From Syntrophales bacterium (GTDB taxonomy: Bacteria > Desulfobacterota > Syntrophia > Syntrophales > UBA2210): 64,000 nt of DNA. A program made the translations under genes and the position numbers. The stretch covers positions 768,001 to 832,000 of the forward strand of contig CAXXNF010000001.1 in NCBI GenBank assembly GCA_963666365.2, given 5' to 3'. Numbering within the stretch: the stretch's first letter is position 1; the number at the start of each line of letters is the position of its first letter. Of the stretch, positions 2,799 through 59,158 are shown piece by piece. The notes under the pieces are model-generated. The model searched no databases. It worked only from the letters and a program-made list of their open reading frames with translations, and had not been told where the DNA came from.

Positions 2799-5186
2799 TC
2801 ATCTGATTCCTGCGGTTTGCTGCAGAAGAATGACGGCATCGGAATGACCGAGAACGCCGTCGCCGGACACATCGAGCCTGTCATAGGACTGACCGTCGGA
2901 GAGGGGCAGACGGACAAGGAGGCGCACCACCTCGATCGCCTCGGCAAGTCCCAGGACTTTCGTGCCCGAAAGATCGATATTCAGAAGTGCGGCGATCGTT
3001 TCGGTCGACACATCCGCATCGGGACAGGTCACGGTAATCCAGTAGCTGTCGCTTACGCCCGGTTCGTAAGGATAGTGTGCACCTGTCCTGCTGAGTGACG
3101 CGTCTATGAGGTACACTGAAGACGCAAAGGTTTCATTGATGGTGGTATTCTCAGATTCCAGGTCCTTGACCACATTCCCTTCGGTATCACGAACAGTTAT
3201 GTAAAACGCCTGATTGGCATAGCCGTTGTAGCCGGAAATGGTGGTGGCCCCGTCAAGAATCACCCGGTGCTGCTGCACCTCGTCCTGGGCTTTGAAAACA
3301 CCGGCGATCTGGAATTCGGTCCCGAAGGCGACTTCCTGATCCGACACCATGGCCACAAAGGATTTTTCCACTGCCCTGCCCCCTGCTTCCGCTCTTACTA
3401 TAATCGTGCTCGCCTGACCCACTCCCGCGGCCCGGGGCGTCACCGTCAGCAGATTGCCCGCGAGCGACGCCGTCACTACCAGTGCATTGGTTGACCGTAC
3501 CTTCAGCGTCAGGTCATCGCCGTTTCTGTCCCGCGCATCGACAAGGATCGTCTGTGCCTCGCCCGTGGCGCCGTTCAGTAAAAGGTCTTCAAAGGCGTTA
3601 AATATCTGGGGGGGTCTGTCCAGCGACTGGTCGACGGCGGCCTTTTCCTCCGGCGTCATCGTTTCCGTGGCAATCGTCACCTCATAGGCGTTGAACCCGT
3701 CGACAAGGGGCCAGGCGCTCGTCCCGTACTGGAGCGAAATGGCAAGCCTGTAGAGACCGGGAGGAAGATCGGAGAGGGTCTTGGTCCTTGCGGTGCTTTC
3801 GTCTTCAGAGCCGTCAAAGGACAAGCCGTCCACCACGGCGCCGTCCAGCGCGTTGGTCACAATAACAAAAAATGCCACATTGCTGTATCCCCGAAATGCG
3901 GTGATGCTGGTCGCCCCTTTCAGATAGACCTCGTAGCGGTCCGCGTCGGCGGCGCTGTCGAAATTTCCCGTGGCCACATTCCCTTCCATGAGGTCGCCCT
4001 CTTCATGGTTGACCCAGCAGTCGCCGGCGGCGGCACTGCAGGGAACTACATGGGTATACATCTCAAGGTCTGGAGTAAAGCTGTAGCCGCCGGCCACGAC
4101 ATTTCTATCGAGAAAGTAGAAATCGTCATCGGTGCCGCCCCAGCCCATGTTGAGGTGAATCTTTGGCCCCTCAGGATAGTCGGTATAGCCGTCGGCAACG
4201 ACCATGTGCTGGCCGATGAAGGAAAGGAGCACCGGCCGCTCCAGGTCGATTTCTCCCTTCAACTCCTGAAAAAAGGCGGTCTCTCCGACATCGCTTTTTG
4301 CCGTCTTTGCGATCGACGAGGAATAGCCGAAATTTTCCTGCATCACGTTGATGTGGGGCAGGGCCGAGGACGTCAGTGCCTCACTGAAGGCCGTTTCATT
4401 CGCTATGGCAAGGTCCCTGATGAGGAGGGCGATTTCATCGGCCTGGTATTCCGGCGTGGTTCCGGTAATGACATCGGGCATGGTGCTCCATGTGTAGGGT
4501 CGATCGAGGATCGCCTCGAGAAGCTGACCGTTCCATGTATGGGACACAGCGCCGGCGCCGCGGGCGGGATAGCCGTGATAGCGCATGAGCTGGGCCATGG
4601 CCACGTTGACGCACCCCGCCACCGCCCGCTTGCCGTTATCGAGCAGGGGAAGAAATTTGTTGTAGGGATTGCCCTGGTTCCACTTCGTGGTAAGCAGCCA
4701 TTGCCCCGGCGTGTAGGCAAGGGGCACTTTCACCAGGTGGTAGTTGAGAAGAAAATCCCAGCGCACCGCCGTTTCGCTCGCCGCGGCCGTCAGCGCAGTT
4801 TTGAGATCCGCCGCCGCCCGGGCATGGTATTCCATTTCGTGGAAGAGGTATTCTCTATACCAGTCGGGAAGGTCTTCAAAGGGGCGCGTCAAGGAATAGG
4901 CCTTGACGGGCGTGAACTGACGGGAGCGGGCGATAAGGACGTAGCCTCCTCCGTTGAGATGGGCGAGAAAGGCCGTTTCTATGGGCGCAATGGTCGGGTC
5001 CAGGGCATTTCCGGATATCATTTCCACGGAGGCAATCTCTTTCCCGCTCTTTACATAGGAAAGGAAATTTTCTACGACCCTTCGACAGTCGTCTTCACCG
5101 AGGGCGGCAGCGGAAGTGCCTGGAAACAAGAAAAATGCTGCACACAGGGCAATAAAACAGCACACTGTCTTACACTTCATTTTCAT
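2799..5186 (-). CDS. Secreted C10-family (streptopain-like) cysteine peptidase with prodomain, accessory beta domains and C-terminal dockerin-like module
   Basis: Signal peptide; WNQGNPYN, AGCVNVAMAQLMRYH (catalytic Cys), GQHMVVADGY (His), HLNMGWGG; C-terminus GLAEAIEVVRLL...DVSGDGVLGHSDAVILLQQTAGIR. Confidence 0.88.
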   Translation of the reverse strand: MKMKCKTVCCFIALCAAFFLFPGTSAAALGEDDCRRVVENFLSYVKSGKEIASVEMISGNALDPTIAPIETAFLAHLNGGGYVLIARSRQFTPVKAYSLTRPFEDLPDWYREYLFHEMEYHARAAADLKTALTAAASETAVRWDFLLNYHLVKVPLAYTPGQWLLTTKWNQGNPYNKFLPLLDNGKRAVAGCVNVAMAQLMRYHGYPARGAGAVSHTWNGQLLEAILDRPYTWSTMPDVITGTTPEYQADEIALLIRDLAIANETAFSEALTSSALPHINVMQENFGYSSSIAKTAKSDVGETAFFQELKGEIDLERPVLLSFIGQHMVVADGYTDYPEGPKIHLNMGWGGTDDDFYFLDRNVVAGGYSFTPDLEMYTHVVPCSAAAGDCWVNHEEGDLMEGNVATGNFDSAADADRYEVYLKGATSITAFRGYSNVAFFVIVTNALDGAVVDGLSFDGSEDESTARTKTLSDLPPGLYRLAISLQYGTSAWPLVDGFNAYEVTIATETMTPEEKAAVDQSLDRPPQIFNAFEDLLLNGATGEAQTILVDARDRNGDDLTLKVRSTNALVVTASLAGNLLTVTPRAAGVGQASTIIVRAEAGGRAVEKSFVAMVSDQEVAFGTEFQIAGVFKAQDEVQQHRVILDGATTISGYNGYANQAFYITVRDTEGNVVKDLESENTTINETFASSVYLIDASLSRTGAHYPYEPGVSDSYWITVTCPDADVSTETIAALLNIDLSGTKVLGLAEAIEVVRLLVRLPLSDGQSYDRLDVSGDGVLGHSDAVILLQQTAGIR

Positions 5187-5234
5187 AGGAGCGACCTTTC
5201 TTTCCTTTGTACTTTATTCTTGATTAAGCGTTGT

Positions 5235-5307
5235 ATCGTATATATTCTCCTGTAAAATAGCAAGCCATAAATAATGCGCCCTTTCCAATTATATGATCAA
5301 ATTCACA
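5235..5307 (-). promoter_or_regulatory. Putative sigma70 promoter plus CRP-like box for the C10 peptidase gene
   Basis: Minus strand TTGCTA(5263-5258)-N17-TACGAT(5240-5235); box TATGA-tcaaat-TCACA at 5292-5307, centred at about -71.5. Confidence 0.6.
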
Positions 5308-5427
5308 GTGTTCTCCCGCACTTTGGAAGTGACCTTCGGAACGTAATCTGATACAAGAAGATAAATAGCGACATCTTCATAAAACGCGCCGCTTCCTGGG
5401 CAGAGTGCAGGGAAAAAGAACATATTT

Positions 5428-5627
5428 TCGCGCAGAGACGCAAAGAACGCGGGGAATTTATGGAATATAACAAGTCGTTCTCTGCGAACTCGGCGTCTCT
5501 GCGGGAGACAAAAAAAAGAAAAGCATCTCGCGCAGGGGCGCTGAGGCGCTGAGGAAAAGAGAAAATAAACAGGCATCCTCTGCGGTCCCTGCGCCTCTGC
5601 GGGAGCACATGAATCAGTTGCTTAGAA
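5428..5627. repeat. Two tandem CGCAGAGACGC/GCGTCTCTGCG inverted-repeat elements
   Basis: cgcgcagagacgcaaag...ctcggcgtctctgcggga and cgcgcaggggcgctgagg...ccctgcgcctctgcggga. Family also at about 2751, 48620, 57854, 59875, 59965, 60180 and 63630. Tail gaatcagttgcttagaa is shared with 57929-57945. Confidence 0.7.
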
Positions 5628-5658
5628 ACGCCGCCATGCCGACCGGGTCGGCATTGTA

Positions 5659-8136
5659 ATGGCACGCAGAGTCTCTGGTACAACAGATATGAAGACACAG
5701 ATGTCAGGACACATTGCAATCAGGAAAACCGGTCCGATGGAGCGCATGCGCACCTGTGTCGCCGTGTCCATGGTGCTTGTTTTTATTGGAGTGTCCGCCC
5801 CTTTTCCCGCCAGGACTCTCGCTTCACCGAATAAAGACCTGTCGGTCTGCCCGCACTATTACATTGAACTTTTCGAGGGTCTCCTGTCGCTGAATGTACG
5901 AGAGGCCGATCCTGTATGCCTGTTGAAGGCAATCGCCGGCGAGACCGGCATCGATCTTTCTATCGATCCCGCTCTCAAGGGCACGGTGACGCTCAGGGCC
6001 GAAAAAGAGCCCCTGGAAAGGGTGTTACAGAAAATCTGCGCAAACCGGGCAGTGGTGTTTTCATACGACAAAGAAAACAATCGCTATTCCATCGTCCGTC
6101 TCGGCGCCTTCGTCTCGGAAGAACCGGCAAAGACGGACGGCGACATTCACGCACCACGGCATGAAGCGACTGAAGACCGGCAGCCTGAGGGGGCCTCGCC
6201 TCCCTCTCACGCCGCCTCCGCGACCGGCGGCATCGATGGTGACGCGAGGGTCGGTCCCGCACTGTCATCGCTCCCGTCCGATCTCGACCGTAAAGGACGC
6301 CCCCGTTACAAAGAGCGGGAGCTGTTGATCCGGTTCAAGGAGGGGACATCAAGGGAACACATCGAGGCGCTCACGCAATCGCTGCAGGTCATTTCGGCAA
6401 AAAAAATATATCGTGGGAAATTTTACAAGGTGGTGCTCCCCCGGCACATTGCTGAAGCACAGGCGATCGAACGCTGCGAGAAGTCCGGCATTGTCGATAT
6501 GGTCGAGCGAAACGCCCTGCGCTACCCCCTGACGACCGCCCCAAACGATCCCCGCTACGCTGAACAGTGGGCCCTGCCGATGATCTCTCTTCCCGAGGCT
6601 TGGGACGTTACGCAGGGAAATTCCTCTATTGTGGTCGCATTGATCGATACGGGGGTGGATTACCTGCACCCCGATCTGTCGCACTGCATCTGGATCAATG
6701 ACGCAGAGGCGACGGGCATCGCCGGTGTCGATGACGACGGAAACGGCTTCGTCGATGATATTCGGGGATGGGATTTTGCGGGAACGGAATCGGCGATAGA
6801 CGACTCCGATGCCGACCCCATGGACGGTTCCGATCACGGCACCCACATGGCGGGCATCGTTGCCGCCGCGGCCGATAACGGCATCGGCATATGCGGTGTG
6901 GCGCCCGGGGTGCGCATCATGCCGTTGAAAGTGCTTGCCGACAAGAGCGGCTACATGGCCGCAGATGACATCATAGAGGCCCTTGCCTACGCCGCCGATA
7001 TGGGGGTGCACATTGTTAATTGCAGTTTCGGAGGGGACGAATCACGAAGCGAGTACCATGCCTTTTCCGATCTGGGACAGGCAGGAATTTTAGCCGTATG
7101 CGCAGCAGGCAACGAAGGTCCCTACTATGCCACGAACCCCGTCTATCCCGCAGGCTATGACCTGGACAATATCATTTCGGTGGCGGCGTCGAAACGTGAC
7201 GACACCCTTGCCTCTTATTCCTGCTACGGTCTGCCCCATGTCGATCTGATGGCGCCCGGAGACCACATACTTTCCACCGTGCCCAGCACCCTGGGCTATA
7301 CCGAGGCGTCCATCACCGTCGGGACCTCTCCCGAGTCATCATCCTACGAGGCCGCCGCCCTTGAATATGCCGGGACCACCGATGAGGCGGGCATAACGGC
7401 GCCTCTCTATTTCTGCGGCAAAGGCAATGCAGCGGATTTCCCCCCGGTGGCGGGCGCCTTTATCGCGCTCATTGAGCGGGGAGATCTCTACTTTTATGAA
7501 AAAACCTCCCATGCCCTGGATCACGGCGCGGTGGCGGTGATCATCTACAACGATAAAACCGACGCCTTCGACGACTGGACCCTCGATCCTCCCCCCTCGG
7601 GCACACCCTGGCCCCCCGTCGTGGGCACTTCACGGGAGAGCGGATTGGCCGTCAGGGCGGCGCTGGAAAATGCCGCCTCACCGCTTTCGGCAACGGTCTA
7701 CAACATTCCCGTCGACACACCGGTCGGCTACGACACTATGAGCGGCACCTCCATGGCGACGCCCCACGTATCGGGGGTTGCGGCACTTCTCCTGTCGGTG
7801 AAACCGGAGCTCACCTATCAGCAGCTCAAGGCGGCGATCCTCGATACCGTTGACGCCAGTGACACCCTCTCGGACAAACTGGTCGCAGGCGGTCGGTTGA
7901 ATGCCCGCGCCGCCCTCCGTTCCGTGTTCGACACCACCGGCGATGTGTCCGGAAACAATGTACAGGGACTGGAGGATGCCATACTGGCGCTTCAGATAGT
8001 GACAGGGGTCGTCCCCGCGGATATACGCACCACCTACGTCAATTCTGAAGACGACATCGGCGGAAACGGCGTCATCGGCCTGGAAGAGGCGGTGTACATC
8101 CTTCAGAAAATAGCGAATACCACCACTCATCATTGA
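5659..8136 (+). CDS. Secreted S8 subtilisin-like serine peptidase: STN/secretin-N0-like domain, prodomain, S8 with PA insert, C-terminal dockerin-like module (start uncertain)
   Basis: Triad motifs VALIDTGVD, HGTHMAGIV, SGTSMATPHVSG; AAGNE; PA domain IALIERGDLYFYEK; C-terminus GDVSGNNVQGLEDAILALQIVTG...DIGGNGVIGLEEAVYILQ. Confidence 0.92.
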   Translation: MARRVSGTTDMKTQMSGHIAIRKTGPMERMRTCVAVSMVLVFIGVSAPFPARTLASPNKDLSVCPHYYIELFEGLLSLNVREADPVCLLKAIAGETGIDLSIDPALKGTVTLRAEKEPLERVLQKICANRAVVFSYDKENNRYSIVRLGAFVSEEPAKTDGDIHAPRHEATEDRQPEGASPPSHAASATGGIDGDARVGPALSSLPSDLDRKGRPRYKERELLIRFKEGTSREHIEALTQSLQVISAKKIYRGKFYKVVLPRHIAEAQAIERCEKSGIVDMVERNALRYPLTTAPNDPRYAEQWALPMISLPEAWDVTQGNSSIVVALIDTGVDYLHPDLSHCIWINDAEATGIAGVDDDGNGFVDDIRGWDFAGTESAIDDSDADPMDGSDHGTHMAGIVAAAADNGIGICGVAPGVRIMPLKVLADKSGYMAADDIIEALAYAADMGVHIVNCSFGGDESRSEYHAFSDLGQAGILAVCAAGNEGPYYATNPVYPAGYDLDNIISVAASKRDDTLASYSCYGLPHVDLMAPGDHILSTVPSTLGYTEASITVGTSPESSSYEAAALEYAGTTDEAGITAPLYFCGKGNAADFPPVAGAFIALIERGDLYFYEKTSHALDHGAVAVIIYNDKTDAFDDWTLDPPPSGTPWPPVVGTSRESGLAVRAALENAASPLSATVYNIPVDTPVGYDTMSGTSMATPHVSGVAALLLSVKPELTYQQLKAAILDTVDASDTLSDKLVAGGRLNARAALRSVFDTTGDVSGNNVQGLEDAILALQIVTGVVPADIRTTYVNSEDDIGGNGVIGLEEAVYILQKIANTTTHH

Positions 8137-8154
8137 AGTACAGCATGTATCGTT

Positions 8155-8721
8155 TCAGTTTTTTGCCGCTTTGTCCTGCCCTCCCTCCGCGGTATAGGTC
8201 ACCAGTTGTATCAGGACGGACAGATAGCCAATCCCTTCTTTGCTCTGTTTGATGGACAGCCTCTTCACCGCCACCAGATTTGATGGGGATTCAACGCGAT
8301 GAAGGTACTCCACCAACTGGTCCAGCGTGATTTTTTCAAGTTTCATTTCCACCGACGATTCGCGATAGGGCCCTTCGTCCTTTGAAGCGGAGGGCTTCAT
8401 ATAGGTGATGTTTGCTTTAATTCCCGCGTTGCCCGCCTCTTTTTCAAGAAAGGAAAAAAGCGTAAATTCCTTTGTCCTTTGGGCAAGGGCTCTCTGTATC
8501 TGCCCCGAATCGGTCTTCAGGGAGCGGTACTGGGCGGCCAGAAGCGAGAGTTCTTTCAGATTTTTCTCACTCTGGACAATGGAATGCTTCACCCGGTCAC
8601 GGGCGTCAAAAAAAGGGAAAAGAATGAACTGCACCACCACAAAGACAACAATCGCCGCAATGCCGGCCATGAGAGAGTAACGCTCCCGCTTGTTCAATTT
8701 CAGTTTTATGCCCATCTTCAT
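8155..8721 (-). CDS. gspM: T2SS protein M
   Basis: LNKRER motif before a single TM, coiled coil, ferredoxin-like C-terminal domain; overlaps the gspL stop. Confidence 0.82.
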   Translation of the reverse strand: MKMGIKLKLNKRERYSLMAGIAAIVVFVVVQFILFPFFDARDRVKHSIVQSEKNLKELSLLAAQYRSLKTDSGQIQRALAQRTKEFTLFSFLEKEAGNAGIKANITYMKPSASKDEGPYRESSVEMKLEKITLDQLVEYLHRVESPSNLVAVKRLSIKQSKEGIGYLSVLIQLVTYTAEGGQDKAAKN

Positions 8722-10250
8722 TGTGCCGGCTCCATCTTGAGATCGAAACTCACCCGTCCGCCCGTTTTCATAAGTTTGGCCGAGCTGATCGTCACGCTCT
8801 TAAAGGCGCGCCCCTTATCCAGGGCACTCTTTATCGAATCAACTGTATTGAAATTGTCCGTTTCTCCTTTAATCCGGATCCCATCTTCGTCATAGGTTAA
8901 ACTTGTGACAAGAAAATCCACCGATTCAGGCACAAGCCGGGACATATCTCTCAGCAGTGAAAGCACCATCGCCTCTGCGCTGAACGTCCCCCGGCCACCC
9001 CCGGCCTTTCGTACCTCGTCGATTTTGTTTTTCATTTGCTGGATCGGATCGACTACCCGCGTCACCCCGGGGAGGGTGGTCGTGAACACGGTCCTGATCT
9101 CCTCTTTGGCTTCTTCAAGTTGTTGCAGATCGTACCGGTAATCGAGATAGAAATTCGCACAGAGCAACACCAGTATCACCGCAGCAAGCGATCCCGCCCA
9201 GGTCAGTTCCCTTCGGATCCACTCGTAGGCGCCTCCGGCATCGGCGCCTTCCGGCAGGAAATTAAAACCGGCGCTCCCCCTCGCTTCTCTAATCGCCATG
9301 GCCAAGGCCTGGTTCATCAGGAGTGGTTCCCATGGCCTCTCCAGGGCTTGTTTAACCTGGACGGCGCTTTTTTCAGCAATATCGAAATCGTATACGGGCA
9401 CATCGAGCGTTCCCTCGATCTCCTCGCGAAGGGGTTGAAAGAGGGCGCCGCCGCCGGTCACATAGACCAGCGAAAGAGGCCCTTCCAGGTCTCCCCGGAA
9501 TGAAAGGAGCTGTATGGTCTCTTTCACCTGGCGGGAAAAATTTTTTGTGAGGACCCGCACCTCCTCACGACAGCCTTCGATGTCCCCTGCTCTTTTTTTT
9601 TGCTCAGCCTCGAGGGGATCGATGTCGAGCGCCCGGGCCATCGTTTCTGTCACCCGATCCCCCCCGAAGGGGAACGTACGAATATGGGCGATGCGCTTTT
9701 CAAACAAAATGATGCACTCTGTCTGTAAGGCCCCGATATCGAGAAGAACCGCACACTCCTCTCCTCCATCGGCAGCGATAAGCCAGGCGGCCACCGGCGT
9801 CACACCCGCATCGACGGCGATGATATCGCCTGATAAACCTGATAAAAGCCTCATCCTCTCATCAACCACGCTGCGGGGGACAGCCCCGGCCAGAAGACCG
9901 GATCCGCCCGAAGCGTCAGCGGTCAGATAGTCCACAACGGCGCTATCCACAGGAAAAGGAACCGATTGCTCCAGTTCGAAAGGAAGGGTCTGACGAATTT
10001 TTTTTCTGTCCCTAAAGGGAAGGTACACCGTTCGAAACGAACACTGCCTGAGCGGAAGGGCGGTTACCAGATCGCTTCCGTGAAACCCCTCCCGTTGCAA
10101 CACCGCTGCAAGCGCCCCTTCAACTCCTCCCGCATCGTCAATATCAACCATCACGGCATCGACGATCTGGTATCCCTTCAGTCCGGCCGATACCGAAACC
10201 GCCTTGACGGATCGTTCACTAATATCAATTCCTGTTATTTTTTCCGGCAT
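8718..10250 (-). CDS. gspL: T2SS protein L (actin-like cytoplasmic domain, TM, PilN-like domain)
   Basis: GIDISERSVKAV, LPFRDRKKIRQTLPFELE, LLDIG, VYVTGGGA, TM, IRIKGETDNFNTVDSIK; lies between gspK and gspM. Confidence 0.82.
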   Translation of the reverse strand: MPEKITGIDISERSVKAVSVSAGLKGYQIVDAVMVDIDDAGGVEGALAAVLQREGFHGSDLVTALPLRQCSFRTVYLPFRDRKKIRQTLPFELEQSVPFPVDSAVVDYLTADASGGSGLLAGAVPRSVVDERMRLLSGLSGDIIAVDAGVTPVAAWLIAADGGEECAVLLDIGALQTECIILFEKRIAHIRTFPFGGDRVTETMARALDIDPLEAEQKKRAGDIEGCREEVRVLTKNFSRQVKETIQLLSFRGDLEGPLSLVYVTGGGALFQPLREEIEGTLDVPVYDFDIAEKSAVQVKQALERPWEPLLMNQALAMAIREARGSAGFNFLPEGADAGGAYEWIRRELTWAGSLAAVILVLLCANFYLDYRYDLQQLEEAKEEIRTVFTTTLPGVTRVVDPIQQMKNKIDEVRKAGGGRGTFSAEAMVLSLLRDMSRLVPESVDFLVTSLTYDEDGIRIKGETDNFNTVDSIKSALDKGRAFKSVTISSAKLMKTGGRVSFDLKMEPAQ

Positions 10251-10273
10251 TCCGCTCTTTTCTCTCTCTGTTG

Positions 10274-11260: not shown

Positions 11261-11624
11261 ACGTGCTCCCGCTGAACGGTGGAGTGCTTCCCCGAAGGGT
11301 TCAAATCCGCCCGGCCCCTATTATCAGGGCCCGTACAGGCTCCCTATGCCGCAGTCACCCCTGCCCGTGCGTCCTGGATGCATCAGATCGGGGGAGGATC
11401 GGATGTTAGATGGAAGCAATATATCATATTTGTCCACACTGCAGCAACATCGTCAACTCCTCAGGGAGCACAGGCCTCCCTGAGGGACGGCATTTTTTCA
11501 TTGAAAGGATCATTTTTTTAAATCGGGCCTTACCATTATGAAAATGATGATTATTTTATAGTCATGCGCCAAGAAAGGTTATGGCTTGAATTTTGGCCTG
11601 ATCCCCATCGCAAGGAGAACGTGC

Positions 11625-13298: not shown

Positions 13299-13302
13299 CC
13301 GC

Positions 13303-13336
13303 AAGGGGGGAGGATTGTGCGCCCTCTCCCCTTTTT
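13303..13336 (+). terminator. Putative intrinsic terminator
   Basis: aaggggggagg...cctctcccctt hairpin followed by a T run immediately after the stop codon. Confidence 0.55.
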
Positions 13337-13400
13337 CAACTCTTGCCGCTTTCCTTCATATATGCTACACATCTCGGCAGATGCGTTTCGGGAGGTCATC

Positions 13401-15355: not shown

Positions 15356-15375
15356 TATAGTACCCTTTCCTCAAG

Positions 15376-51800: not shown

Positions 51801-54800
51801 GCATGGGATTGTTCTGCATGGCGACGCGGCCGAGAATCATGCCCGTGCCGGCATCGTTTCCGAAGGCGGCGTATTCGGCGCCCGTGAAGAGCCGGTAGGG
51901 CAGCAGGGCCTGTGTGTCTTCCTGCAGGGTCATGTAACGGCTCAACACAGGGGCATAATCGGTATCCGCAGGCTGCGGGATGGAAAGATAGAACGCCTGA
52001 CCCACCGGGATGTCGGTGAGCATGAAAGCGCCCAGCGCGCCGTCAGCGGGGTGCGTACCGATGAGATCGCCCGTCGGCTGCCGCGCTTCCGCCTGGGCGC
52101 CGGGAACGACTTGGTCCTGTGTATCCCTGACCCAGCCGAAGAAGGACACCCCTGCGGGACCACCGGCGACGAGATTGATACCGCCGGCATTCGTTTGACT
52201 CAGCGCCGTCACCTGTACGGGGTTGTACTGAGCCTCGGCGAAGGGTTCGCCTTCATCGCGCTGGTTGTCGCCGTTGCTGTCGAGGTAGGCCCCCACATAG
52301 TAATCAACGCCCGGCGTCAGGCCGAAGATCAGAAACTGTGCGGGATTTTCGTTGAACACCTCTTCCAGTCCGGCAACGGGCGTTTGCATCGCCTGGTCGG
52401 AGTAGACGATGACATGCATGGCGCCGCTTGCCTGCGTCCAGTTCTGGCAATAGACGCCGCCGATCACGTAGCCTTTGTCCTCATCGCCTTCGCGGTAATC
52501 GAAATAGACAGGTTCCGCGTAGGCCTCATCGCCCGATGCGTAAACCGCCACCAGCTGCACCGAGTAGGTGCCGGTCGTCTTGTCGTAGGCCCCCAGCAGT
52601 GAGTAGAGGTTGACCGTGTTGGTGTCGTGAAGCGGCGTGTCGTTTTCTGTGTTCCGAACGACATTTCCCGCACCGTCGTAGACGATATAATAATAATGAT
52701 CCACGGCGGTATTGGGCGCCCAGGAAAGAATCCCCGCCGCATTCACCTTTACGCCCGCGGGCAGAGCCCCCGGCGTGCCGGGTTGAAAGTCGTAGGTGAA
52801 CGTCTCTGTGTGCTGGTCGGTGTAGGTCGCCGTAAATGTATAGGTTCCCGCATAGTTTTCCGGGAATCCCTCCGTGATGAAAGCGGTATCCGAGGGATAG
52901 ACTGCCCAGAATTCATCGTACTCCCCGTTAAGCGGGAAATCAACGATGCCCGAATTTTCCGGACCGGTCACGGTGACCGATGCAATGCCGGTTACCTCGC
53001 CTTCCAGAATGAGTTCGAGCTGATAGCCCTGGGCGGAATGCATGTACATGACGTCGGGCGTCAATGCCGGCGCCGTGGCCTGATAGGTAAAGCTCGTCTG
53101 CAGCAGGGAGTAGTTCCCCTCGGGATCATCGCTTGAAATCATGTAGGTGTATGTGCCGTCTGCAAGGGCCGGTCCGTCGTAGGCTATGGTCCCGCTCTGC
53201 AGATCATGGGCACTCCAGATCTGATTCCACGTGCTGTCGAACAGCTCGATGCCGTGGCTGAATCCGGGTATCGGCATCCACGAAAATGCAAGATCGCCCG
53301 ATACCGTGGCGCTCTGTACGGGCGACAGGTTTGTGGGGAAGACCTCTACGAAATAGTTGACCGGTACCGTCTGAACAACCTGCTGGCCGCTTCCGTACTC
53401 TATGGTGAAGGTGTAGCTCAGCGGGAGCGCCGGTCTCGTGTTGCCGAAGGTGGGGTTGTTGTTTGTTTGCTCGGGAGACTCGCTCCAGGAATGCCACTCC
53501 TCCTCATCCTCCGCATCGTGATAGAGTGCGATGGATCCGTCGATGCCGTCGCCCGTAACGGTGACGGAGGTAATCAGATTACCCGGGTCCTCCACTTCCA
53601 GAGAGACCCAGTAGATATCGGGATTGGTGGATTGGGCCTGGTAGCCGGATCGGGCCATGACTTCAAAGAGTTTCTGGTTCCCGTAAATCTTCCAGGCGCC
53701 GCTTTCGTTGACAAAGTGGAGAAGCTCTGCCTCCCTGCCGTTCCAGAGGACCATCATCGTGGCCGAAGTGCCGTCGATGACGGTGTTCAGCACCGTATAG
53801 GTCTCTCCCTGGAACTCGGGATCGCTGAATTCCTCGGTAAGTTCGGCCGCAAAGCCAGTTTTCGTCAGGCCGTCGTCGAGATAGTTCTCGGACACATAGG
53901 CCATGAATCCGCCGAGATTCTTGGCGTTAAATTCCACCATGGCTGCATCGAAGGCGCCCCTCAGGGCCAGCGTGTCGCCGTCGGAGGCGCTGAAGATGTA
54001 GCCTTCGCTGACGGCGTCGCCATGGGTCATGAAGACGCGGCCGTCAAAGACAAACGCTGACAGTTGCGCGGTGACGGCCACCATGTCCCCCTCGAGCACA
54101 TTGGGGATCAGATATCTGCCGTCAGCGGCCGTTGTACCTGTTGTGCTTCCGGGATAGACGGGGGCGTAGGTCTGTCCGAGCATGCTTGTACAGAACACCT
54201 CGGCGTTCTGTATCCCGCTTCCGAAGGATTTGTCCCAGACCCTGCCGGTAATGACGCCCTTGCCGGACTCGATGCCCCAGGCCGCCACATCGGCGGGTGT
54301 GAAGAGTATAAAGGGAATATTTGTATTTTCTATATCGGCGGCGCTGCGGATGACGGCCGAGAACACGGATACGTACCCCAGTTTTGCGATACCCAATGTA
54401 AAGGCGGTATCGACAGGCAGCCCTTCAAGGGTGAAGGCGCCGCCTGTAACGGTTGTCGTGAAGAGAGAAGGATTTTCTGCCATGAACACCGTGGCGCCTT
54501 CAATGCCGGCGCCCAGGCTGTCCGCCACCATGCCCGTAAAGGAGATGCCCTCGGGGGGAGACGTCGCTGTCCCCAGGATCAATCCCTCGTGTGCACTGTC
54601 GCTGTGAATGGAGTGGAACGCCGGTCCCTGGAAGGCCCAGCCGTCCTTGGCGCCCTGCACGGCGATCGCATCGCCCGGCGTAATGCCGTAAATGTAGTAG
54701 AGGCCGTTTGCCGATGTTGTCGCCGTTTCACCCGAGGTGAAGGACATCCCATCGAAGTAGGCCACATTGTAGGCGCCGCTCAGTGCGCTGGTGTAGGTGA

Positions 54801-57288
54801 CCTTCACTCCCGCCACCGGCTGCGAGGGATTCGCCGCATCGACGACCCGGCCGGTGATAAAACCCGTGCCGGAAGGCAGTATTTCGATCGGCCAGCCTGC
54901 AAGTTCCGTCGGCGTAAACATGACAAAGGGCCAGAGGCCGACCACATCCTGGGACGTATTCATTGTCTGCGAATAGACAGGGACATAATTGGTAGCGGTG
55001 ATCTGGAGGGCAAAGGGAGTATTGACCGGCAGCCCGCTTAAGGTAAAGGCCCCTAAAGTGTCCGTAGTGGTGGATATGTTTGCGTTGTCGGCGGATGACA
55101 CGGTGGCGCCGGCGATCGGCGTTCCGTCGATGGGAGAATTCACATTGGAGGCCCTGACAAGGCCGGTAAAGGAGATGCTGGGTCCCTGGGAAAGGAAGAA
55201 ATACACGTTATCAACGGTTTCACCGGCGTTAAAGGTGAGCACCTGAGCGCCGTCGATGGTTTCGGCATTGGGATACCACTGGGCAATCTGGGCGCCGGTG
55301 TAATCTTCGTGGAAAATCCTGATTCGGTAGTCGCCTACGGGAATGCCGACGAGGTGGAAATCCTTAGAGTGAAACATGAAAAGCTCACGCTCGAAGGCCT
55401 TGGTGCCGGCGGCATTGTAAAATTCGAGGATAAAATTCTCGGCGAACAGGTCGTCAAGTGTGCGTACGCCCCCTGAAATCTGTGCCAGTGCGGGGTCGGC
55501 GGTGATCTGAAGAGGCGCATTGCCGGTGGCTGTAGTGGTGCCGTCGGAGGTGGTGGCGTGGAACATTACCGTGAATGCGCCCGGTTCCTGATCCAGCATT
55601 TGAAAAGTGGATGCGTAGGACCGGTTGCTGTCGTACCATGTTCCTTTTTCCGAGCGGTTGCTGCTGAAGCTCGTCATGCCCGATACGCTGGTTCCAACTT
55701 GTGTGAGCGCGTAGTTGCCCGTAGCTGAAAAGCTCAGGTCGCCCGCGTACGAATAGGGCACCGATGAGGGTGTAATGGACACCTGCACTTGCGGGGCCGT
55801 TTCGCCTATGGTGATAGTGACCGGCAGCGATGCCTGGGCGCCGTCGGTCGCGGTGACCACAATATTGGCACTGCCTGCGGTGAGGGCATAGTAATTAGGT
55901 CCCCAGGTGGTCGGTTCCACCATAACTACCAAGGGATTGTCCGATGAAATGGTCAGAGGGCTCGGCATGCCCATGCCGTAGGGGGCCATCATGCCCTGGG
56001 TATTGCCGAGTGAATCGGTGGCGTCGATCTGCAGGCCGTAGGAGTTGAACTGCCCCTGCGCGGTCAGATCGATCTGAGTGACGTCTTCCCTCGTATTCGT
56101 CTGGGTGAGAGGATTGTAGACATAGCGGTAAAAATTAATTGAATTTATGGTGACCACTTCCAGGAGGAACGGCACGTAGCGTGGCTGTGTGTTCGCTTCC
56201 TCGGTTTTGAGGAGAATAGAATAGTCACCGGCAGCGACTGCGCTGGTATCTATTTTCAGTAGCACGCCGCCGGCGTTTTTGAGCGGAACCGGCGTAAAGG
56301 TCGTTATGGCGCCTGCCGGAAGCGTCGATGGATCGATACTGAAGGTAATGCCGCTGGTGGTGGCAAAGTCATTGAGAAAGTCGATGGCAATCACATATTC
56401 GGCAACCTGACCTTTGACCGCGGTAAGATCGTCATTTTTGAGATTCACTGTGTAATTCGGCGAGGTAACTTCAAAGGAAAAGTTGGTGTTGCTTTCCACG
56501 TGATCGGCTACCACATAGACCCTGCCGCTGCGTGCCGGGTCGTTGACCGTCACATCGATTGACGTGTCTGACCAGGAGGTGACCGTTATACCGTTGGAAC
56601 TCCCGCCGATGGAGACAAAACCCTGAGTGGCGCCGAAGTTCGTTCCCGTGATGGTAAGAACACTGCCATAGGCGCCGGAATTTGCTGAAACGTCGCTTAT
56701 TTGAGGCAGTACGCCGATGGTGACCGTATCGGTTGAATCAACGAGGCTGATATTGTCAGTGATAAAACCGCCAGTATTTTCCTTGAAGATCTCAATCTTG
56801 ATCAGTTTTCGTGCGTCCGCCGGAAAGGCGACATCGCTAGTGAATATGGTCGGGTTGGACGGGTCTGACGATACGTCCGCCACGGGGGGCATGCCGAATT
56901 CGATAAAACCCATGGTATCACTGGTGGTTACATAGGTAAGCTCGACTTGAATGGTATGGTCGTTCCAGGCGTTTACTTTGCTGAGATCCATGGAGAACTG
57001 GAGCGTTTTTCCTCCGATATTGTCGGCATTCAGGTTTTGGTAGATGACCAGACCTGTATATTCCATGAAACCGCTTGAGGGGGGATTCAGGCTCACCGCG
57101 CCGTCCGCAAGCGGGTTCCATGAGGGATCTATTTCCGGGTCGATGTTCCAGTCCAGAAGACCGCTCGAAAAATCGCCATTTCTTATTATCTCGACCGCTG
57201 AAACCGCCGAGGCGGAAAATGAGGCGGCAAAGACAAAAAGAACGGTAAGAATGTATAGAACTCTTTGTGTCCAGTGCGGTGTTTTCAT
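48868..57288 (-). CDS. About 2800-aa secreted modular protein (CBM-like N-terminus, IPT/TIG, repeated cassettes paralogous to the 1659-aa protein) with subterminal dockerin-like motif
   Basis: Start MKTPHW after aaggag; signal peptide; IIRNGDFSSG; ISDVSANSGAYGSVLTITGTNFG; same cassettes and C-terminus as 43423..48402. Confidence 0.85.
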   Translation of the reverse strand: MKTPHWTQRVLYILTVLFVFAASFSASAVSAVEIIRNGDFSSGLLDWNIDPEIDPSWNPLADGAVSLNPPSSGFMEYTGLVIYQNLNADNIGGKTLQFSMDLSKVNAWNDHTIQVELTYVTTSDTMGFIEFGMPPVADVSSDPSNPTIFTSDVAFPADARKLIKIEIFKENTGGFITDNISLVDSTDTVTIGVLPQISDVSANSGAYGSVLTITGTNFGATQGFVSIGGSSNGITVTSWSDTSIDVTVNDPARSGRVYVVADHVESNTNFSFEVTSPNYTVNLKNDDLTAVKGQVAEYVIAIDFLNDFATTSGITFSIDPSTLPAGAITTFTPVPLKNAGGVLLKIDTSAVAAGDYSILLKTEEANTQPRYVPFLLEVVTINSINFYRYVYNPLTQTNTREDVTQIDLTAQGQFNSYGLQIDATDSLGNTQGMMAPYGMGMPSPLTISSDNPLVVMVEPTTWGPNYYALTAGSANIVVTATDGAQASLPVTITIGETAPQVQVSITPSSVPYSYAGDLSFSATGNYALTQVGTSVSGMTSFSSNRSEKGTWYDSNRSYASTFQMLDQEPGAFTVMFHATTSDGTTTATGNAPLQITADPALAQISGGVRTLDDLFAENFILEFYNAAGTKAFERELFMFHSKDFHLVGIPVGDYRIRIFHEDYTGAQIAQWYPNAETIDGAQVLTFNAGETVDNVYFFLSQGPSISFTGLVRASNVNSPIDGTPIAGATVSSADNANISTTTDTLGAFTLSGLPVNTPFALQITATNYVPVYSQTMNTSQDVVGLWPFVMFTPTELAGWPIEILPSGTGFITGRVVDAANPSQPVAGVKVTYTSALSGAYNVAYFDGMSFTSGETATTSANGLYYIYGITPGDAIAVQGAKDGWAFQGPAFHSIHSDSAHEGLILGTATSPPEGISFTGMVADSLGAGIEGATVFMAENPSLFTTTVTGGAFTLEGLPVDTAFTLGIAKLGYVSVFSAVIRSAADIENTNIPFILFTPADVAAWGIESGKGVITGRVWDKSFGSGIQNAEVFCTSMLGQTYAPVYPGSTTGTTAADGRYLIPNVLEGDMVAVTAQLSAFVFDGRVFMTHGDAVSEGYIFSASDGDTLALRGAFDAAMVEFNAKNLGGFMAYVSENYLDDGLTKTGFAAELTEEFSDPEFQGETYTVLNTVIDGTSATMMVLWNGREAELLHFVNESGAWKIYGNQKLFEVMARSGYQAQSTNPDIYWVSLEVEDPGNLITSVTVTGDGIDGSIALYHDAEDEEEWHSWSESPEQTNNNPTFGNTRPALPLSYTFTIEYGSGQQVVQTVPVNYFVEVFPTNLSPVQSATVSGDLAFSWMPIPGFSHGIELFDSTWNQIWSAHDLQSGTIAYDGPALADGTYTYMISSDDPEGNYSLLQTSFTYQATAPALTPDVMYMHSAQGYQLELILEGEVTGIASVTVTGPENSGIVDFPLNGEYDEFWAVYPSDTAFITEGFPENYAGTYTFTATYTDQHTETFTYDFQPGTPGALPAGVKVNAAGILSWAPNTAVDHYYYIVYDGAGNVVRNTENDTPLHDTNTVNLYSLLGAYDKTTGTYSVQLVAVYASGDEAYAEPVYFDYREGDEDKGYVIGGVYCQNWTQASGAMHVIVYSDQAMQTPVAGLEEVFNENPAQFLIFGLTPGVDYYVGAYLDSNGDNQRDEGEPFAEAQYNPVQVTALSQTNAGGINLVAGGPAGVSFFGWVRDTQDQVVPGAQAEARQPTGDLIGTHPADGALGAFMLTDIPVGQAFYLSIPQPADTDYAPVLSRYMTLQEDTQALLPYRLFTGAEYAAFGNDAGTGMILGRVAMQNNPMQFLAGATIEVQRWTPMGLVGDPLQVTYTGGGNATAEDGLYMVKNVPVMDEFHPPVLYQVTATLDGYTFTFNNALVPVAAGTVTEDSIFATGEAGLQARMLYMRFTGGDQLEMILKGDVADIASVTVTGPGNSGILNFPLNPGVGEDEGEFWAVYPSDTSFITEEFPESYTGWYTFIATYADQHTETRTFDFQPGTPLEVPANVGVNGDTGMLAWDAVDGAAGYYLVITDVGNQMEVYNGEADPMILQSPFDLFTALGQRGVPSGEYTVQVVAVDGPFGNEAYADPAPFFYQGGAAMTISFTGKVVDSEGNAIQGAEVMLADNWSHMVMTGTDGTFTLGSLPIDTPFTLRIFLWGYADSYSAIIRSGTDIDSTGTPFKLFTPDQVEAWGVEAGKGVITGRVLDRTSGFAVPNAVVSYTSLSGQSYTVVYPGSAEATGAEGTYRILNIADGDRVIVTATCPGFAFDGRVFMTHAYSVSEGSIFGASDGATLTLRSQFDAAMVEFNSGHLEEFMACVSEDYLDDGQTKAGFRAELAEEFSDPGFDGETYVVLGSFIDGEMGYLTVLWNGVEREVIPFKYEGGAWQLYGNQKLFEVMARSGHQAASANPDTYWVSLEVEDPGDMITGVTVTGDGIDGSLALYHDPEDKSWNSWQENNNPTFGNMRPELPLTYTFTVNYQSQEKTETVTVANFVEVFPYDAAPWEGQTVTGDFAFSWTPVPGFIHGIELFDMNWNRVWEKYDVQGGLVEGQVQVAYDGPALEGGRYYYNVVTSDSDGNYSLLQTSFTYALPGPVPSLGQAILVLQALTGQNPTGLEAVRDVNNDGRIGLIEAMYVLQTNAGLVTPLPVTSESGTAELTSRAWNDNDGFDFSEATTKRVQIIDDMYDWQDTDFIVETNIIFLAPGVEAQDLGVLSLSDVNRVPIDGYGPTLDVILDPAHVYAFRLFDGTYAAIQFTETAVDQGNDTFKSTFNYKYQPNWSANF

Positions 57289-57599
57289 GGTACGCTCCTT
57301 ATTGTGATAAAAAATTTTGCAATAGTACGCCGACAGAGACTGCATATGGTAATTCCCCTCTGGATCAGAGAATCCATGCATCCGTTCGGCGCACCCGATT
57401 TCCAATGACTAACAACACTTCCGTCTGTCTGTAAGATGTGTAACCGGATGAAGAACTATGGTAATACTTGCATAATATAGTGATCGAAAGGTCATTATGC
57501 AAGGGCCTCTGTTCGTCGGACAGGCAATACACGAAGTCGAAAATATTCAGCCGGTTTAAAAGATCCACCCACCCCCATTACACCTTTTGATTTGGGTAT

Positions 57600-57765: not shown

Positions 57766-57953
57766 GTTAAAAATTCCACGATGCCGACGCATCGGCATTA
57801 TAATGGAAAATAACTCACAGTTTCTTGGGCAGCGAACCGAAAAAAAACAGCATCTCGCGCAGGGGCGCAGGGACGCTGAGGACAAGAGGAAATATCTTTC
57901 TCTGCGTCTTGGCTCTGCGGGAGAAAAAGAATCAGTTGCTTAGAAGATTTGCC

Positions 57954-58640
57954 TTATTTTATGCGCCGTTTGAGGCGAGTGGGGTTGTGAATGCGTATGG
58001 TGTTGCCATCAACGCTTACCAGGCCCTTTTCTCTGAGGGTTCTCAGCTCCTTGTTGATGCTTTCCCGGGAGGCGCCAACCATCTTTGCCAGGTCCGTCTG
58101 GGTAAGGGCAATGTCGAATTCGATCTCATCTCCTACTTCTCTTCCGTGCTCTTCCGCCAGTTCCACAAGTTTCTTTGCGAATCGTCCCGACACGTTGAGA
58201 AAACAGGTGTCCTGCAGGAGGTCGTCGGTTTTTCGAAGGCGAAGCGAGAGCGATCGAAGAATGGCCTGGATCGCCCCTCTGTTGTTCTGGAGAAAGCCCA
58301 CGAAATCGCTTTGGTTCAGCACGTAAAGCTCCGAATCTTCCAGGGCCACGGCGTCGGCGGAGCGGGGCATACCGTCGAGCAGGGCCATTTCACCGAAAAA
58401 ATCCCCCTCTGAAAAGAGCGCCAGGACCACCTCGTCACCCATGGTAGAAGGAAGGACGATCTTTACTTTTCCCTTTGTGATAACATAGAGCGTGGTCCCT
58501 TCACTCCCCTTGCGGAAGAGCACTTCACCCCTTTTGATTGACTGCCGCCTGATCGACGCGGCAAGATGTTTCCGGTCTTCCGGTCCCAGCGAGTGGAAAA
58601 GGGGGATATTCATGATAAATGATTCGGGAGACATAGGCAT
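57954..58640 (-). CDS. Crp/Fnr-family transcriptional regulator, cAMP-binding type
   Basis: cNMP pocket FFGEMALLDGMPRSADA; HTH LTQTDLAKMVGASRESINK; no Fnr-type N-terminal Cys cluster. Confidence 0.93.
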   Translation of the reverse strand: MPMSPESFIMNIPLFHSLGPEDRKHLAASIRRQSIKRGEVLFRKGSEGTTLYVITKGKVKIVLPSTMGDEVVLALFSEGDFFGEMALLDGMPRSADAVALEDSELYVLNQSDFVGFLQNNRGAIQAILRSLSLRLRKTDDLLQDTCFLNVSGRFAKKLVELAEEHGREVGDEIEFDIALTQTDLAKMVGASRESINKELRTLREKGLVSVDGNTIRIHNPTRLKRRIK

Positions 58641-58657
58641 CTCTCCTTTGTATTCTC

Positions 58658-59158
58658 TTACGGCGATGGTGCCCCTTTGGGCACAATGACGATAGAACCG
58701 GTGCGCTGTGACGCATCGATATTCTTCAATTTTTCACTCATCATCTGCAGTTCCGCGATATTCAGAGACGTTTCCTGTTTTTTCTCAAGATCCTTCCGTG
58801 CCGTAAAGGTGAAGGTGAAAAGAGGAATCTTATCACCCGATATTCCCTGTGCGCTTGCCATGACCAGAATCAGACGGCCCGGTTTTTTGTCATTGACCAC
58901 ATGCATCATGGCGCCGGTATGATTCGTTTTGGCGCCTCCTGCGTAGATGAGAAGGTGGTGGTTGTAATCGATGACGATTTTAATCCCCGCCAGTTCCTTC
59001 ACCGTGTCGACGGTCAGTGTTGCCGCAAAGGACTCCCCCGGTGCAACGGCGCCCCCGTCGATGGAAACTTCCACGGCTTCCGCCGGGGAAACGCAGAAAA
59101 GACACATCGCCGTCAGGATGAGGGCCAAAATTCCGCTGCTGCTCCAATGTCGCTTCAT
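58658..59158 (-). CDS. Stand-alone secreted cohesin-domain protein
   Basis: Signal peptide (SPAEA|V); VAPGESFAATLTVD...LAGIKIVIDYNHHLL...NDKKPGRLILVMAS..GISG..PLFTFTF...GSIVI fits the cohesin beta-sandwich pattern. Confidence 0.78.
   Translation of the reverse strand: MKRHWSSSGILALILTAMCLFCVSPAEAVEVSIDGGAVAPGESFAATLTVDTVKELAGIKIVIDYNHHLLIYAGGAKTNHTGAMMHVVNDKKPGRLILVMASAQGISGDKIPLFTFTFTARKDLEKKQETSLNIAELQMMSEKLKNIDASQRTGSIVIVPKGAPSP

Follow-up and report, generated by a model that had tools for sequence, protein, structure and literature searches.

A cohesin-dockerin locus among type II secretion genes

We analysed a stretch of 64,000 nucleotides from the genome of a Syntrophales bacterium (C1:768001-832000, here called the window), which amounts to 1.6% of a 4.0 Mb genome in two contigs (G000). 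In this one neighbourhood lie the genome's only two cohesins, six secreted proteins tagged with dockerins and a complete type II secretion system (T2SS, Gsp). We take the locus to hold a cohesin-dockerin system that is not cellulosomal, that belongs genetically to the T2SS locus and that would act as a surface scaffold, and we give this reading a probability of roughly 0.55. The domain map is based on a listing of open reading frames (ORFs) and on Pfam and NCBIfam scans of 41 window ORFs; coordinates are window positions unless a contig or locus is named.

The centre of the locus is a run of minus-strand genes that extends from 59158 down to 32483. In transcription order these encode a free single-domain cohesin (coh203), a Crp-family regulator, two giant repeat adhesins (p2845 and p1659), a mini-dockerin protein (o133), a secreted protein (p272), a cohesin on a stalk (p1002), a second secreted protein (p512) and an Ig-repeat protein (p1519). 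The intergenic gaps from o133 through to p1519 are 53-92 nt and the gap between coh203 and the crp gene is 17 nt, and two transcription units are therefore suggested. The other three dockerin-tagged proteins, a C10 peptidase, an S8 subtilase and a beta-propeller protein, are encoded between 2799 and 19900.

The two cohesins

The stalk protein p1002 (38714-41722, minus strand) starts with a signal peptide, followed by one N-terminal cohesin (about 41153-41641) and a stalk of about nine beta-sandwich repeats of the CarboxypepD_reg/SdrD_B type (CarboxypepD_reg 6.9e-58 in 9 stretches). The free cohesin coh203 (58658-59158, minus strand) has a Sec signal peptide of the AxA type, a mature length of about 135 residues and nothing beyond the domain. 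A lipoprotein anchor was considered for it and ruled out, as the lipobox cysteine is not conserved among 21 family members. Scored with Pfam Cohesin (PF00963, curated cut-off 24.1 bits), p1002 reaches 45.3 bits and coh203 32.7 bits (ORF 58658-59269, model positions 1-138 of 139), and a six-frame scan of the whole genome returned these two matches only, at 45.1 and 33.7 bits respectively. A preliminary description of the window had put forward two cohesin-like domains, to be checked by fold and by Pfam search, and both stand.

The model of mature coh203 (AlphaFold2, 24 homologues) has a mean predicted local distance difference test (pLDDT) of 90.5 and a predicted template modelling (TM) score of 0.82. 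When it was compared with the PDB using Foldseek, ranks 1-49 among the matches listed were all cohesins or cohesin-like modules (best E 1.1e-10, TM 0.81), the non-cellulosomal Archaeoglobus cohesin among them. The predicted fold is that of a type I-like cohesin, a flattened beta-sandwich (jelly-roll). The cohesin domain of p1002 has a pLDDT of 85-87 within the complex models described below, and comparison of the coh203 family with the stalk-cohesin family by hhalign gave a probability of 94% (E 1e-7). By this profile comparison the two families are homologous, and the support for a cohesin fold in p1002 is indirect because it comes through homology to the coh203 family.

A search for homologous proteins with coh203 returned 8 proteins, one labelled 'hypothetical protein' and the others nameless. 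Of 1.84 billion cluster representatives, 161 belong to the family at E<=1e-30, a number that rises to 547 at E<=1e-10; by such sequence counts the small-cohesin family is not rare. A single cohesin stretch is found in 141 of the 150 best family representatives. The coh203 profile also matches multi-cohesin metagenome proteins, for instance one of 899 aa with 5 stretches and one of 2262 aa with 9 (examples are P0009, P0102, P0107, P0125 and P0127). Judged by these matches, true scaffoldins with cohesins of the coh203 type exist elsewhere.

The dockerin modules and the proteins that carry them

The same preliminary description had named six proteins as sharing a dockerin-like motif. A strict regular expression for the loop and helix, run over the six frames of the window, gave exactly six matches, all in those genes: the C10 peptidase (2835-2873, minus), the S8 subtilase (8053-8091, plus), the SBBP propeller protein (19844-19882, plus), o133 (43004-43042, minus), p1659 (43885-43923, minus) and p2845 (49321-49359, minus). 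Genome-wide the expression matches 15 times, and the 6 matches inside the window represent a marked clustering (binomial p 7e-8). The Pfam search that had been proposed as a check, which was positive for the cohesins, was negative here: Dockerin_1 (PF00404, curated cut-off 22.9 bits) showed no match at E<=10 to the tails of C10, S8 and SBBP, and gave 12.4 bits (E 0.18) with o133, which at 13.6 bits is the sole window match in the whole-genome scan. Over the whole genome Dockerin_1 matches 31 times at E<=1, 14 of these matches exceeding the cut-off, and the Pfam-matching dockerins share the layout GDxNGDGxVDLxDAIxxLQ ... ADVNGDGxIGLxEAxYILQ.

A hidden Markov model (HMM) was built from 13 Pfam-passing dockerins located outside the window and run against 28,488 stop-to-stop ORFs. 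It recovers all six modules (S8 2.2e-12, p1659 3.7e-8, p2845 1.3e-7, o133 4.3e-5, SBBP 1.7e-4, C10 3.1e-3). At E<0.01 it finds 46 dockerin ORFs in the genome, 6 of which fall within the window (p 9e-5, or 7e-4 when the two paralogues are counted once). The six proteins had been described as a system; they are indeed clustered, but they are a clustered subset and not the whole cargo. When a profile of 34 dockerin sequences was compared with the PDB, the best match was a solved dockerin (2y3n_B, 2e-10) spanning both repeats, followed by many EF-hand proteins, as would be expected for this type of loop. These profile matches indicate that the six modules are divergent dockerins.

The modules differ in their completeness and position. 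Both calcium loops are complete only in S8; the first is degenerate in C10 and SBBP and absent in p1659 and p2845, and the second is absent in o133. Only in C10, S8 and SBBP is the module C-terminal. In p1659 and p2845 it is about 165 aa ahead of the C-terminus, and in o133 it comes right behind the signal peptide.

Two of the carriers are peptidases. The first (2799-5186, minus strand) is a secreted C10 (streptopain-family) cysteine peptidase, matching Peptidase_C10 over the full model at 1.1e-41, with an N-terminal hydrophobic signal found by inspection and a C-terminal dockerin at about 2802-3011. The second (5659-8136, plus strand) is a secreted S8 subtilase (Peptidase_S8 1.1e-50) with a PA insert, a Fervidolysin_NPro-like prodomain, all of the triad motifs DTG, HGTH and GTSMA, and a two-repeat C-terminal dockerin (7921-8133). 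The third carrier (15641-19900, plus strand) is a secreted protein with Big_2 domains and an SBBP beta-propeller (3.7e-44) that ends in a dockerin at about 19688-19897. The o133 protein (42713-43114, minus strand) has a signal peptide, one calcium loop with its helix and a second helix without a loop; its C-terminal PPPR is conserved in an alignment of 7 homologues.

The two giant adhesins, p1659 (43423-48402, minus strand) and its paralogue p2845 (48868-57405, minus strand), contain CarboxypepD_reg repeats, together with TIG domains in p2845, whose start is likely the MKTPHW methionine near 57288. Their dockerins (43834-44061 and 49270-49497) are followed by a C-terminal domain of 135 aa that among the loci compared occurs only in G000 (2 copies), G014 and G001. 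Over the last 209 aa, comprising the dockerin and this domain, the two proteins are 92% identical, a likeness that suggests recent duplication in tandem or gene conversion. The corresponding near-identical stretches of DNA (43426-44052 and 48871-49485, minus strand) are a possible assembly hazard.

Beyond the window, 20 of the other 40 dockerin ORFs were scanned for Pfam domains. The scanned ORFs are mostly giant surface-type proteins with Ig-like, CarboxypepD_reg, beta-helix/NosD, Lcl_C, cadherin, PKD, CARDB, propeller and FGE-sulfatase domains, and a glycoside hydrolase or peptidase catalytic domain was found in none of the 20. The only peptidases among the 26 dockerin proteins examined are therefore C10 and S8, both of which are beside gsp genes. 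The biggest dockerin ORF of the genome, at 6,562 aa (G000:C2:2347822-2367507, minus strand), has an internal dockerin that Pfam recognises (34.1 bits).

Within the window, no glycoside hydrolase catalytic domain was recognised in the 41 ORFs scanned, including all six dockerin proteins, and no match to a carbohydrate-binding module (CBM) was seen in these scans. The nearest glycosidase-related matches are a sub-threshold Glyco_hydro2_C5 beta-sandwich in p1519 and the SLT lytic transglycosylase at 60957-62384 (minus strand). The cargo is thus one of proteases and adhesins, as had been described, while the accompanying term 'cellulosome-like' goes too far: with one cohesin per scaffold, no CBM and no glycoside hydrolase found, this is not a cellulosome.

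Predicted complex between the stalk cohesin and the S8 dockerin

The cohesin of p1002 (alignment of 7 sequences) was modelled together with the S8 dockerin (alignment of 34) and 2 calcium ions, following the suggestion in the preliminary description that dockerins and cohesins be paired by structure prediction. For this one pair the model scored far above its 3 controls, with an interface score ipSAE of 0.91 in each of 3 runs where the best control had 0.01. Contacts agree between the runs to at least 82%, and the partner has a pLDDT of at least 86. In calibration, 116 of 157 solved complexes and 2 of 215 mismatched pairs came up to the score mark, which is a rough guide here given our own alignments and the riding ligand.

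In the model both helices of the S8 dockerin touch strands 83-87 and 94-101 of the p1002 cohesin. The predicted interface comprises 43 of 163 residues and includes 10 of the 19 invariant cohesin columns (p 0.009). In the coh203 family, the block with the highest conservation, MHVINDKTPGKLIVVMAGARGI, aligns to these same strands, 83-87 and 94-101.

Type II secretion genes

Genes of the gsp set lie on both sides of the cassette. At the left edge is an exeA/gspA-like AAA ATPase (2-842, minus strand), with AAA_22 matched on two frame pieces, 2-421 and 447-842. The open frames overlap around 447-547, and in the relative G014 exeA is a single ORF of 323 aa (L011:920-1891). The two-frame reading reflects either a true frameshift or an indel error in the long reads. 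GspC (943-1704, minus strand; T2SSC and PDZ, PF11356 60.3 bits) and GspN (1704-2531, minus strand; TIGR04411 81.9 bits, cut-off 50) follow, and beyond the two peptidases comes a gspK-gspL-gspM block (8155-11260, minus strand; T2SSK_1st, PilM_2/GspL_C and T2SSM). On the plus strand gspF-gspG-gspH start from 28553 (T2SSF 5.8e-67, T2SSG 5.2e-44, N_methyl with TIGR01708), and right behind them is a SurA/PrsA-type peptidyl-prolyl isomerase (30811-31767, plus strand; Rotamase 1.7e-27), which was not found in the G014 region. Divergent from coh203 are gspI and a gspJ-like minor pseudopilin gene (59455-60933, plus strand; N_methyl with T2SSI, and N_methyl), the gspJ assignment being based on N_methyl and orthology to G014 only. 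Their G014 orthologues lead into gspKLMN-C-exeA-TPR-D-E-cohesin. To the left of the window, at a distance of 0.8-4.7 kb, are gspD and gspE, with exeA and a TPR gene upstream of them, and a prepilin peptidase (Peptidase_A24) is encoded elsewhere in the genome (C1:458271). Judged by these family matches, the core set (C-N, D, E, exeA and the peptidase) is complete.

Conservation of the locus in relatives

Of the 339 genomes of the order, 22 (from 12 of 72 genera) have a homologue of coh203, as do 6 of 401 in a phylum sample, G000 being counted in both. For 26 other genomes we surveyed up to 10 kb on each side of the small cohesin, using the window proteins together with GspD and GspE as queries. 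A T2SS gene lies within 10 kb of the small cohesin in 17 of them, and 13 of the 26 have the cohesin immediately after gspE in the same orientation. Recurrent linkage to T2SS genes had been proposed as a check on the locus, and the adjacency to gspE, which spans at least six families of the order, is stronger than could have been foreseen from the window. Other arrangements are gspG-gspH-cohesin (G261), gspF/cohesin/gspE (G201), gspIJKLM at a distance of 4-8 kb (G001) and, as in the window, a cohesin divergent from gspI (G670). The gene directly after the cohesin is of the Crp family in 11 of the 26, often followed by a giant dockerin adhesin.

In G014, which belongs to the same family and another genus, the locus has a more orderly form. 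There gspF-G-H are followed by an S8-dockerin peptidase, by the cassette giant adhesin-o133-p272-p1002-p512-p1519 and by an SBBP protein, and the series gspI-J-K-L-M-N-C-exeA-TPR-gspD-gspE ends with a 160-aa cohesin that starts 2 nt past the gspE stop. G078 has a single run of gspE-cohesin-o133-p272-p1002-p512-p1519 and G689 a run of S8-cohesin-o133-p272-p1002-p512. A gene for o133 lies ahead of that for a stalk-type cohesin in G000, G014, G001, G078, G689, G266 and G011, and in G000, G014 and G001 a gene for an S8-dockerin peptidase directly adjoins gsp genes. The order gspIJKLMN-C-exeA-TPR-D-E, small cohesin, crp, giant adhesin, o133, p272, stalk cohesin, p512, Ig protein thus recurs whole or in parts, and by gene order and homology the cassette from the cohesin and crp through to p512 and p1519 is conserved across several families. 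In G011 (C36) an ORF of 282 aa (L003:220-996) joins a stalk-type cohesin to a Pfam-positive dockerin (27 bits) in what looks like an adaptor-like fusion, just ahead of which lies the tail of an o133 homologue.

The secreted protein p512 (37093-38631, minus strand) has no match in Pfam or NCBIfam, its tail included. It consists of a conserved N-terminal part of 335 aa and two repeats of ~85 aa, and its G014 counterpart is 78% identical. A search for related loci with p512 found 3. In three genomes p512 homologues that adjoin the stalk cohesin end in dockerins (L013:3403-4836; L012:3543-5618, in G001; L015:9986-11074), and elsewhere the C-terminus is made of other repeat modules (G000, G014 and G078), with the twofold 85-aa repeat in G000 and G014. 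This swapping of modules would fit a role of p512 as cargo of the neighbouring cohesin. A further homologue, L014:9914-11506, ends in a twofold 'WNLISIP...GYWIN' repeat.

Pfam-level dockerins (E<=1e-4) occur in 17 of the 22 genomes of the order that have the small cohesin and in 15 of the 317 that do not; the odds ratio of 68 overstates the association, as relatives are not independent. This co-occurrence bears on a reading of the modules as EF-hand-type calcium-binding tails, which would stabilise the proteins or bind them to a matrix and would not be partners of the cohesins, these having another ligand. The failure of Dockerin_1 on every one of the six modules, the many EF-hand proteins among the PDB matches, the degenerate state of several loops and the ratio of 46 dockerin ORFs to 2 cohesins would all be accounted for in this way. 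On the other hand the best PDB match covers both repeats of a true dockerin (2y3n_B), dockerins come and go on the cohesin-adjoining p512, and the complex model passed where its controls stayed at 0.01 or below; together with the co-occurrence, these make EF-hand tails a very improbable explanation.

It is also conceivable that the cassette and the T2SS are mere neighbours, the cassette being a mobile or co-regulated surface island whose proteins are exported otherwise. The patchy spread of the small cohesin within the order and the phylum sample is consistent with this, as is the transfer of cohesin/dockerin modules between clades inferred by Murali et al. (PMC10553843) in its account of these modules. 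Moreover, 40 of the 46 dockerin ORFs are located elsewhere in the genome, the G000 locus is rearranged, and genes for IS200/Y1-type transposases are found next to the locus in G000 (26806-27492, minus strand), G014 (L007:13-666) and G279 (L059:15984-16655). Mere proximity would seem fairly unlikely all the same: in at least six families of the order gspE and the cohesin sit tightly together on one strand, in three genomes S8-dockerin peptidase genes abut gsp genes, and the 41 window ORFs scanned revealed no other dedicated exporter.

A possible role of the free cohesin in secretion

For coh203 itself, a different function may be envisaged. The small cohesin could be a T2SS accessory, that is, an adaptor or chaperone in the periplasm to which the dockerin would be a tag for export or retention; dockerin proteins would be handed to the T2SS, or their dockerins masked until they are outside, with p272 as a possible link to GspC/GspD. 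As far as coh203 is concerned, this suits the gene order at least as well as a surface scaffold does. In 13 of 26 genomes the gsp operon ends with the cohesin gene, which in G014 starts 2 nt past gspE, and the product consists of the bare domain with a Sec signal but no anchor. Its conservation across families (35-45% identity) is on a par with that of T2SS structural proteins (GspM 39-46%, GspC 32-39%, GspL 30-35%).

The p272 protein (41802-42620, minus strand) consists of an N-terminal domain resembling secretin N0/STN domains, a small beta domain and a long helical hairpin (AlphaFold2 pLDDT 76). The top Foldseek matches of the N-terminal domain, all weak, are secretin N0 domains, and they include an entry for a GspC-GspD complex (3oss); the best E is 0.02, none is <=0.001, and the TM score by query is 0.26 or less. 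These agree with a sub-threshold match to STN (21.9 bits, cut-off 28.4), and in a protein atlas p272 falls with nameless Thermodesulfobacteriota clusters (0.90-0.92), STN leads following at 0.80. The predicted likeness to secretin N0 is a lead only. NCBIfam gave zero matches for p272, o133, coh203, p1659 and the p1659 tail.

Set against the adaptor are the E values of the p272 matches, all above 0.001, with STN below its cut-off, the 9 of 26 genomes in which the cohesin has no T2SS neighbours, and the free single cohesin of a cellulosome producer (PDB 4n2o), for which its published entry implies no such role. Overall we regard an adaptor as a fairly unlikely function. A related and, in our view, quite unlikely possibility is that the dockerin is an address tag of T2SS cargo: the free cohesin, maybe with p272, would recognise tagged folded proteins in the periplasm and either pass them on to the T2SS or catch them where they emerge from it, and the 46 dockerin proteins would make up one T2SS secretome that a portable module defines.

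A tag on T2SS-exported enzymes is known from the GlyGly-CTERM/rhombosortase system, in which a transmembrane helix is processed by a protease and the enzyme becomes lipid-linked and is retained at the surface. The resemblance would be one of logic only, as the tag here would be a folded calcium-binding module held in a protein socket.

A surface scaffold and its anchoring

In the surface scaffold that we favour, the secreted proteins of the locus would cross the inner membrane by the Sec route, as their signal peptides, read by eye, suggest, and the dockerin-tagged ones, judged by their gene neighbourhood, would probably leave the periplasm through the adjacent T2SS. Outside, calcium-binding dockerins would plug into the cohesin at the tip of the 1002-aa stalk protein or into the free 135-aa cohesin. 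Proteases and giant adhesins would in this way be held at or near the cell surface in an adhesive and proteolytic matrix, presumably in the setting of cell-cell or particle attachment in sediment.

Anchoring is the weakest step of this scaffold. Candidates for a stalk anchor are p512, p272 and the co-operonic Ig protein p1519, which carries a putative C-terminal sorting or anchor signal. p1519 (32483-37042, minus strand; Big_1, Invasin_D3 and Big_2) ends in a hydrophobic helix followed by RRKN, and its CFI-box putative sorting motif scores 16.4 bits against a cut-off of 15.9. It sits two genes downstream of the p1002 stalk with gaps of 82 and 53 nt, as expected from the proposal that an Ig-repeat protein shares an operon with the cohesin stalk, and its G014 counterpart is 48% identical. 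A family of proteins sorted by the CFI-box was considered and dropped, as p1519 has the sole CFI-box C-terminus in the genome.

A number of observations weigh against the scaffold. Neither p1002 nor coh203 has a recognisable anchor. None of the six window dockerins reaches the Dockerin_1 cut-off, and a calcium loop is degenerate or missing in C10, SBBP, p1659, p2845 and o133. With 46 dockerin ORFs for 2 cohesins, most of the dockerins may have other partners or none. The model covers one of the possible pairs, p1002 with S8, and leaves coh203 out; its score shows likeness to solved cohesin-dockerin pairs and maybe not affinity, and because many such complexes have been solved the pass may mirror that likeness. 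In 9 of the 26 genomes the surroundings of the small cohesin showed no T2SS gene; the stretch examined was 13.8-19.9 kb in five of these (G042, G299, G693, G378 and G716), and in the other four (G003, G301, G278 and G689) the cohesin is on a short contig or at the end of one. The gsp genes of G000 form four scattered blocks with metabolic genes and the IS200-type transposase between them, and exeA is in two frames. To our knowledge T2SS substrates are not recognisable from sequence, and giant adhesins of 1,600-2,800 aa are more usually exported by other routes.

How the T2SS chooses its folded cargo, and how some of that cargo is retained on the cell, is still poorly understood. In this system a well-understood plug-and-socket pair is tied into the secretion operon itself, and the putative cargo can be read from the sequence as 46 dockerin ORFs, including two proteases beside gsp genes.

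Relation to known systems

A 2009 survey by Peer et al. is said to cover non-cellulosomal cohesins and dockerins across the domains of life. The fold predicted for coh203 resembles those of the clostridial pairs 6kge, 1ohz and 2ccl and of the Archaeoglobus fulgidus cohesin 2xdh (TM 0.80-0.83) at sequence identities of 10-19%. As in the clostridial pairs, the S8 dockerin has a duplicated calcium loop and helix and both helices are predicted to lie on one sheet of the cohesin. Unlike clostridial cellulosomes, the system has one cohesin per protein and a diderm host, and lacks CBM, glycoside hydrolase, SLH and sortase anchor. The autonomous cohesin of Ruminococcus flavefaciens (4n2o) is free-standing like coh203 (TM 0.67), although it comes from a monoderm cellulosome producer and its entry shows no link to a secretion operon.

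The preliminary description knew of no characterised example in this lineage, which overstated the novelty, as related systems are in print (PMC10553843; PMC8542988; bioRxiv 10.1101/2023.11.21.568195). One case is that of the syntrophic sulfate reducers that partner anaerobic methanotrophic archaea (ANME), for which cohesin/dockerin, Ig-like and S8 protease domains are listed as putative adhesins expressed in consortia (PMC10553843). That work also reports a patchy distribution, inferred transfer and clustered genes, for example an eight-gene run in HotSeep-1. The ANME-partner clusters belong to the same phylum-level group and have a like domain set. The term 'type II secretion' does not occur in the full text of PMC10553843, nor 'secretion' in its adhesin table (file 8), and the gspE-cohesin operon, the order of the cassette and the free single-domain cohesin seen here are not among the features that its adhesin account describes.

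In Ca. Stygibacter (Cloacimonadota) a cohesin scaffoldin has been proposed to hold dockerin-bearing S8 and C25 peptidases in a complex likened to a cellulosome (PMC8542988). This organism too is a diderm, and its signal-peptide enzymes, S8/S53 serine and C25 cysteine peptidases, have C-terminal dockerins. As portrayed in that paper, its scaffoldin has tandem cohesins, CBM2/CBM3 and a C-terminal surface-attachment domain, and the cargo includes GH18/GH57; by contrast, the locus described here has one cohesin per scaffold, no CBM or glycoside hydrolase found and a T2SS neighbour.

In Omnitrophota, T2SS-like loci and a Rotamase-type (Rotamase_2) isomerase are located upstream of giant dockerin-type genes (bioRxiv 10.1101/2023.11.21.568195). 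There gspD, gspE and gspF homologues and the isomerase lie by the giants, and here the isomerase follows gspF-G-H. The Omnitrophota giants differ in being membrane-anchored with SecA-like domains, and a cohesin in the secretion operon is not reported for the loci presented in that preprint. Dockerin-like and cohesin-like ORFs in a T2SS-bearing marine bacterium were also noted in PMC2386152, where the relevant section leaves them unlinked.

Full-text searches, viewed mostly as listings, yielded no paper whose title or abstract places a cohesin gene within a gsp operon. Earlier publications cover both the cohesin-dockerin adhesins of sulfate reducers and the dockerin-bearing peptidases of diderms. 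What appears to be new, from the arrangement of the genes, is a cohesin-dockerin adhesin and protease system whose free cohesin is built into a T2SS operon. It would extend the cohesin-dockerin biology of sulfate-reducing sediment bacteria, where such proteins had earlier been proposed as cell-cell adhesins, by a defined conserved cassette and a candidate export route.

Other genes of the window

The Crp/Fnr-family regulator (57954-58640, minus strand; cNMP_binding 5.8e-27, HTH_Crp_2) lies 17 nt downstream of coh203. The genes interleaved with the gsp blocks encode phosphoenolpyruvate carboxykinase (PEPCK), a UPF0047 protein, a response regulator, a binding-protein/deaminase, an ADP-forming acyl-CoA synthetase, a BcrAD/BadFG-type activase of 1476 aa and the IS200-type transposase (26806-27492, minus strand). 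PEPCK, the acyl-CoA synthetase and the activase were all absent from the 100 kb examined of G014. The lytic transglycosylase at 60957-62384 (minus strand; SLT and SBP_bac_3) is MltF-like and comes right after gspJ on the opposite strand. The plus-strand ORFs at 60930-62729 that overlap it have zero family matches and are probably not genes. On positions 1-20000 of the window, read set X2 gave short snippets only, and one contig of read set X1, which is possibly the source sample, covers 5506-20000 with zero differences.

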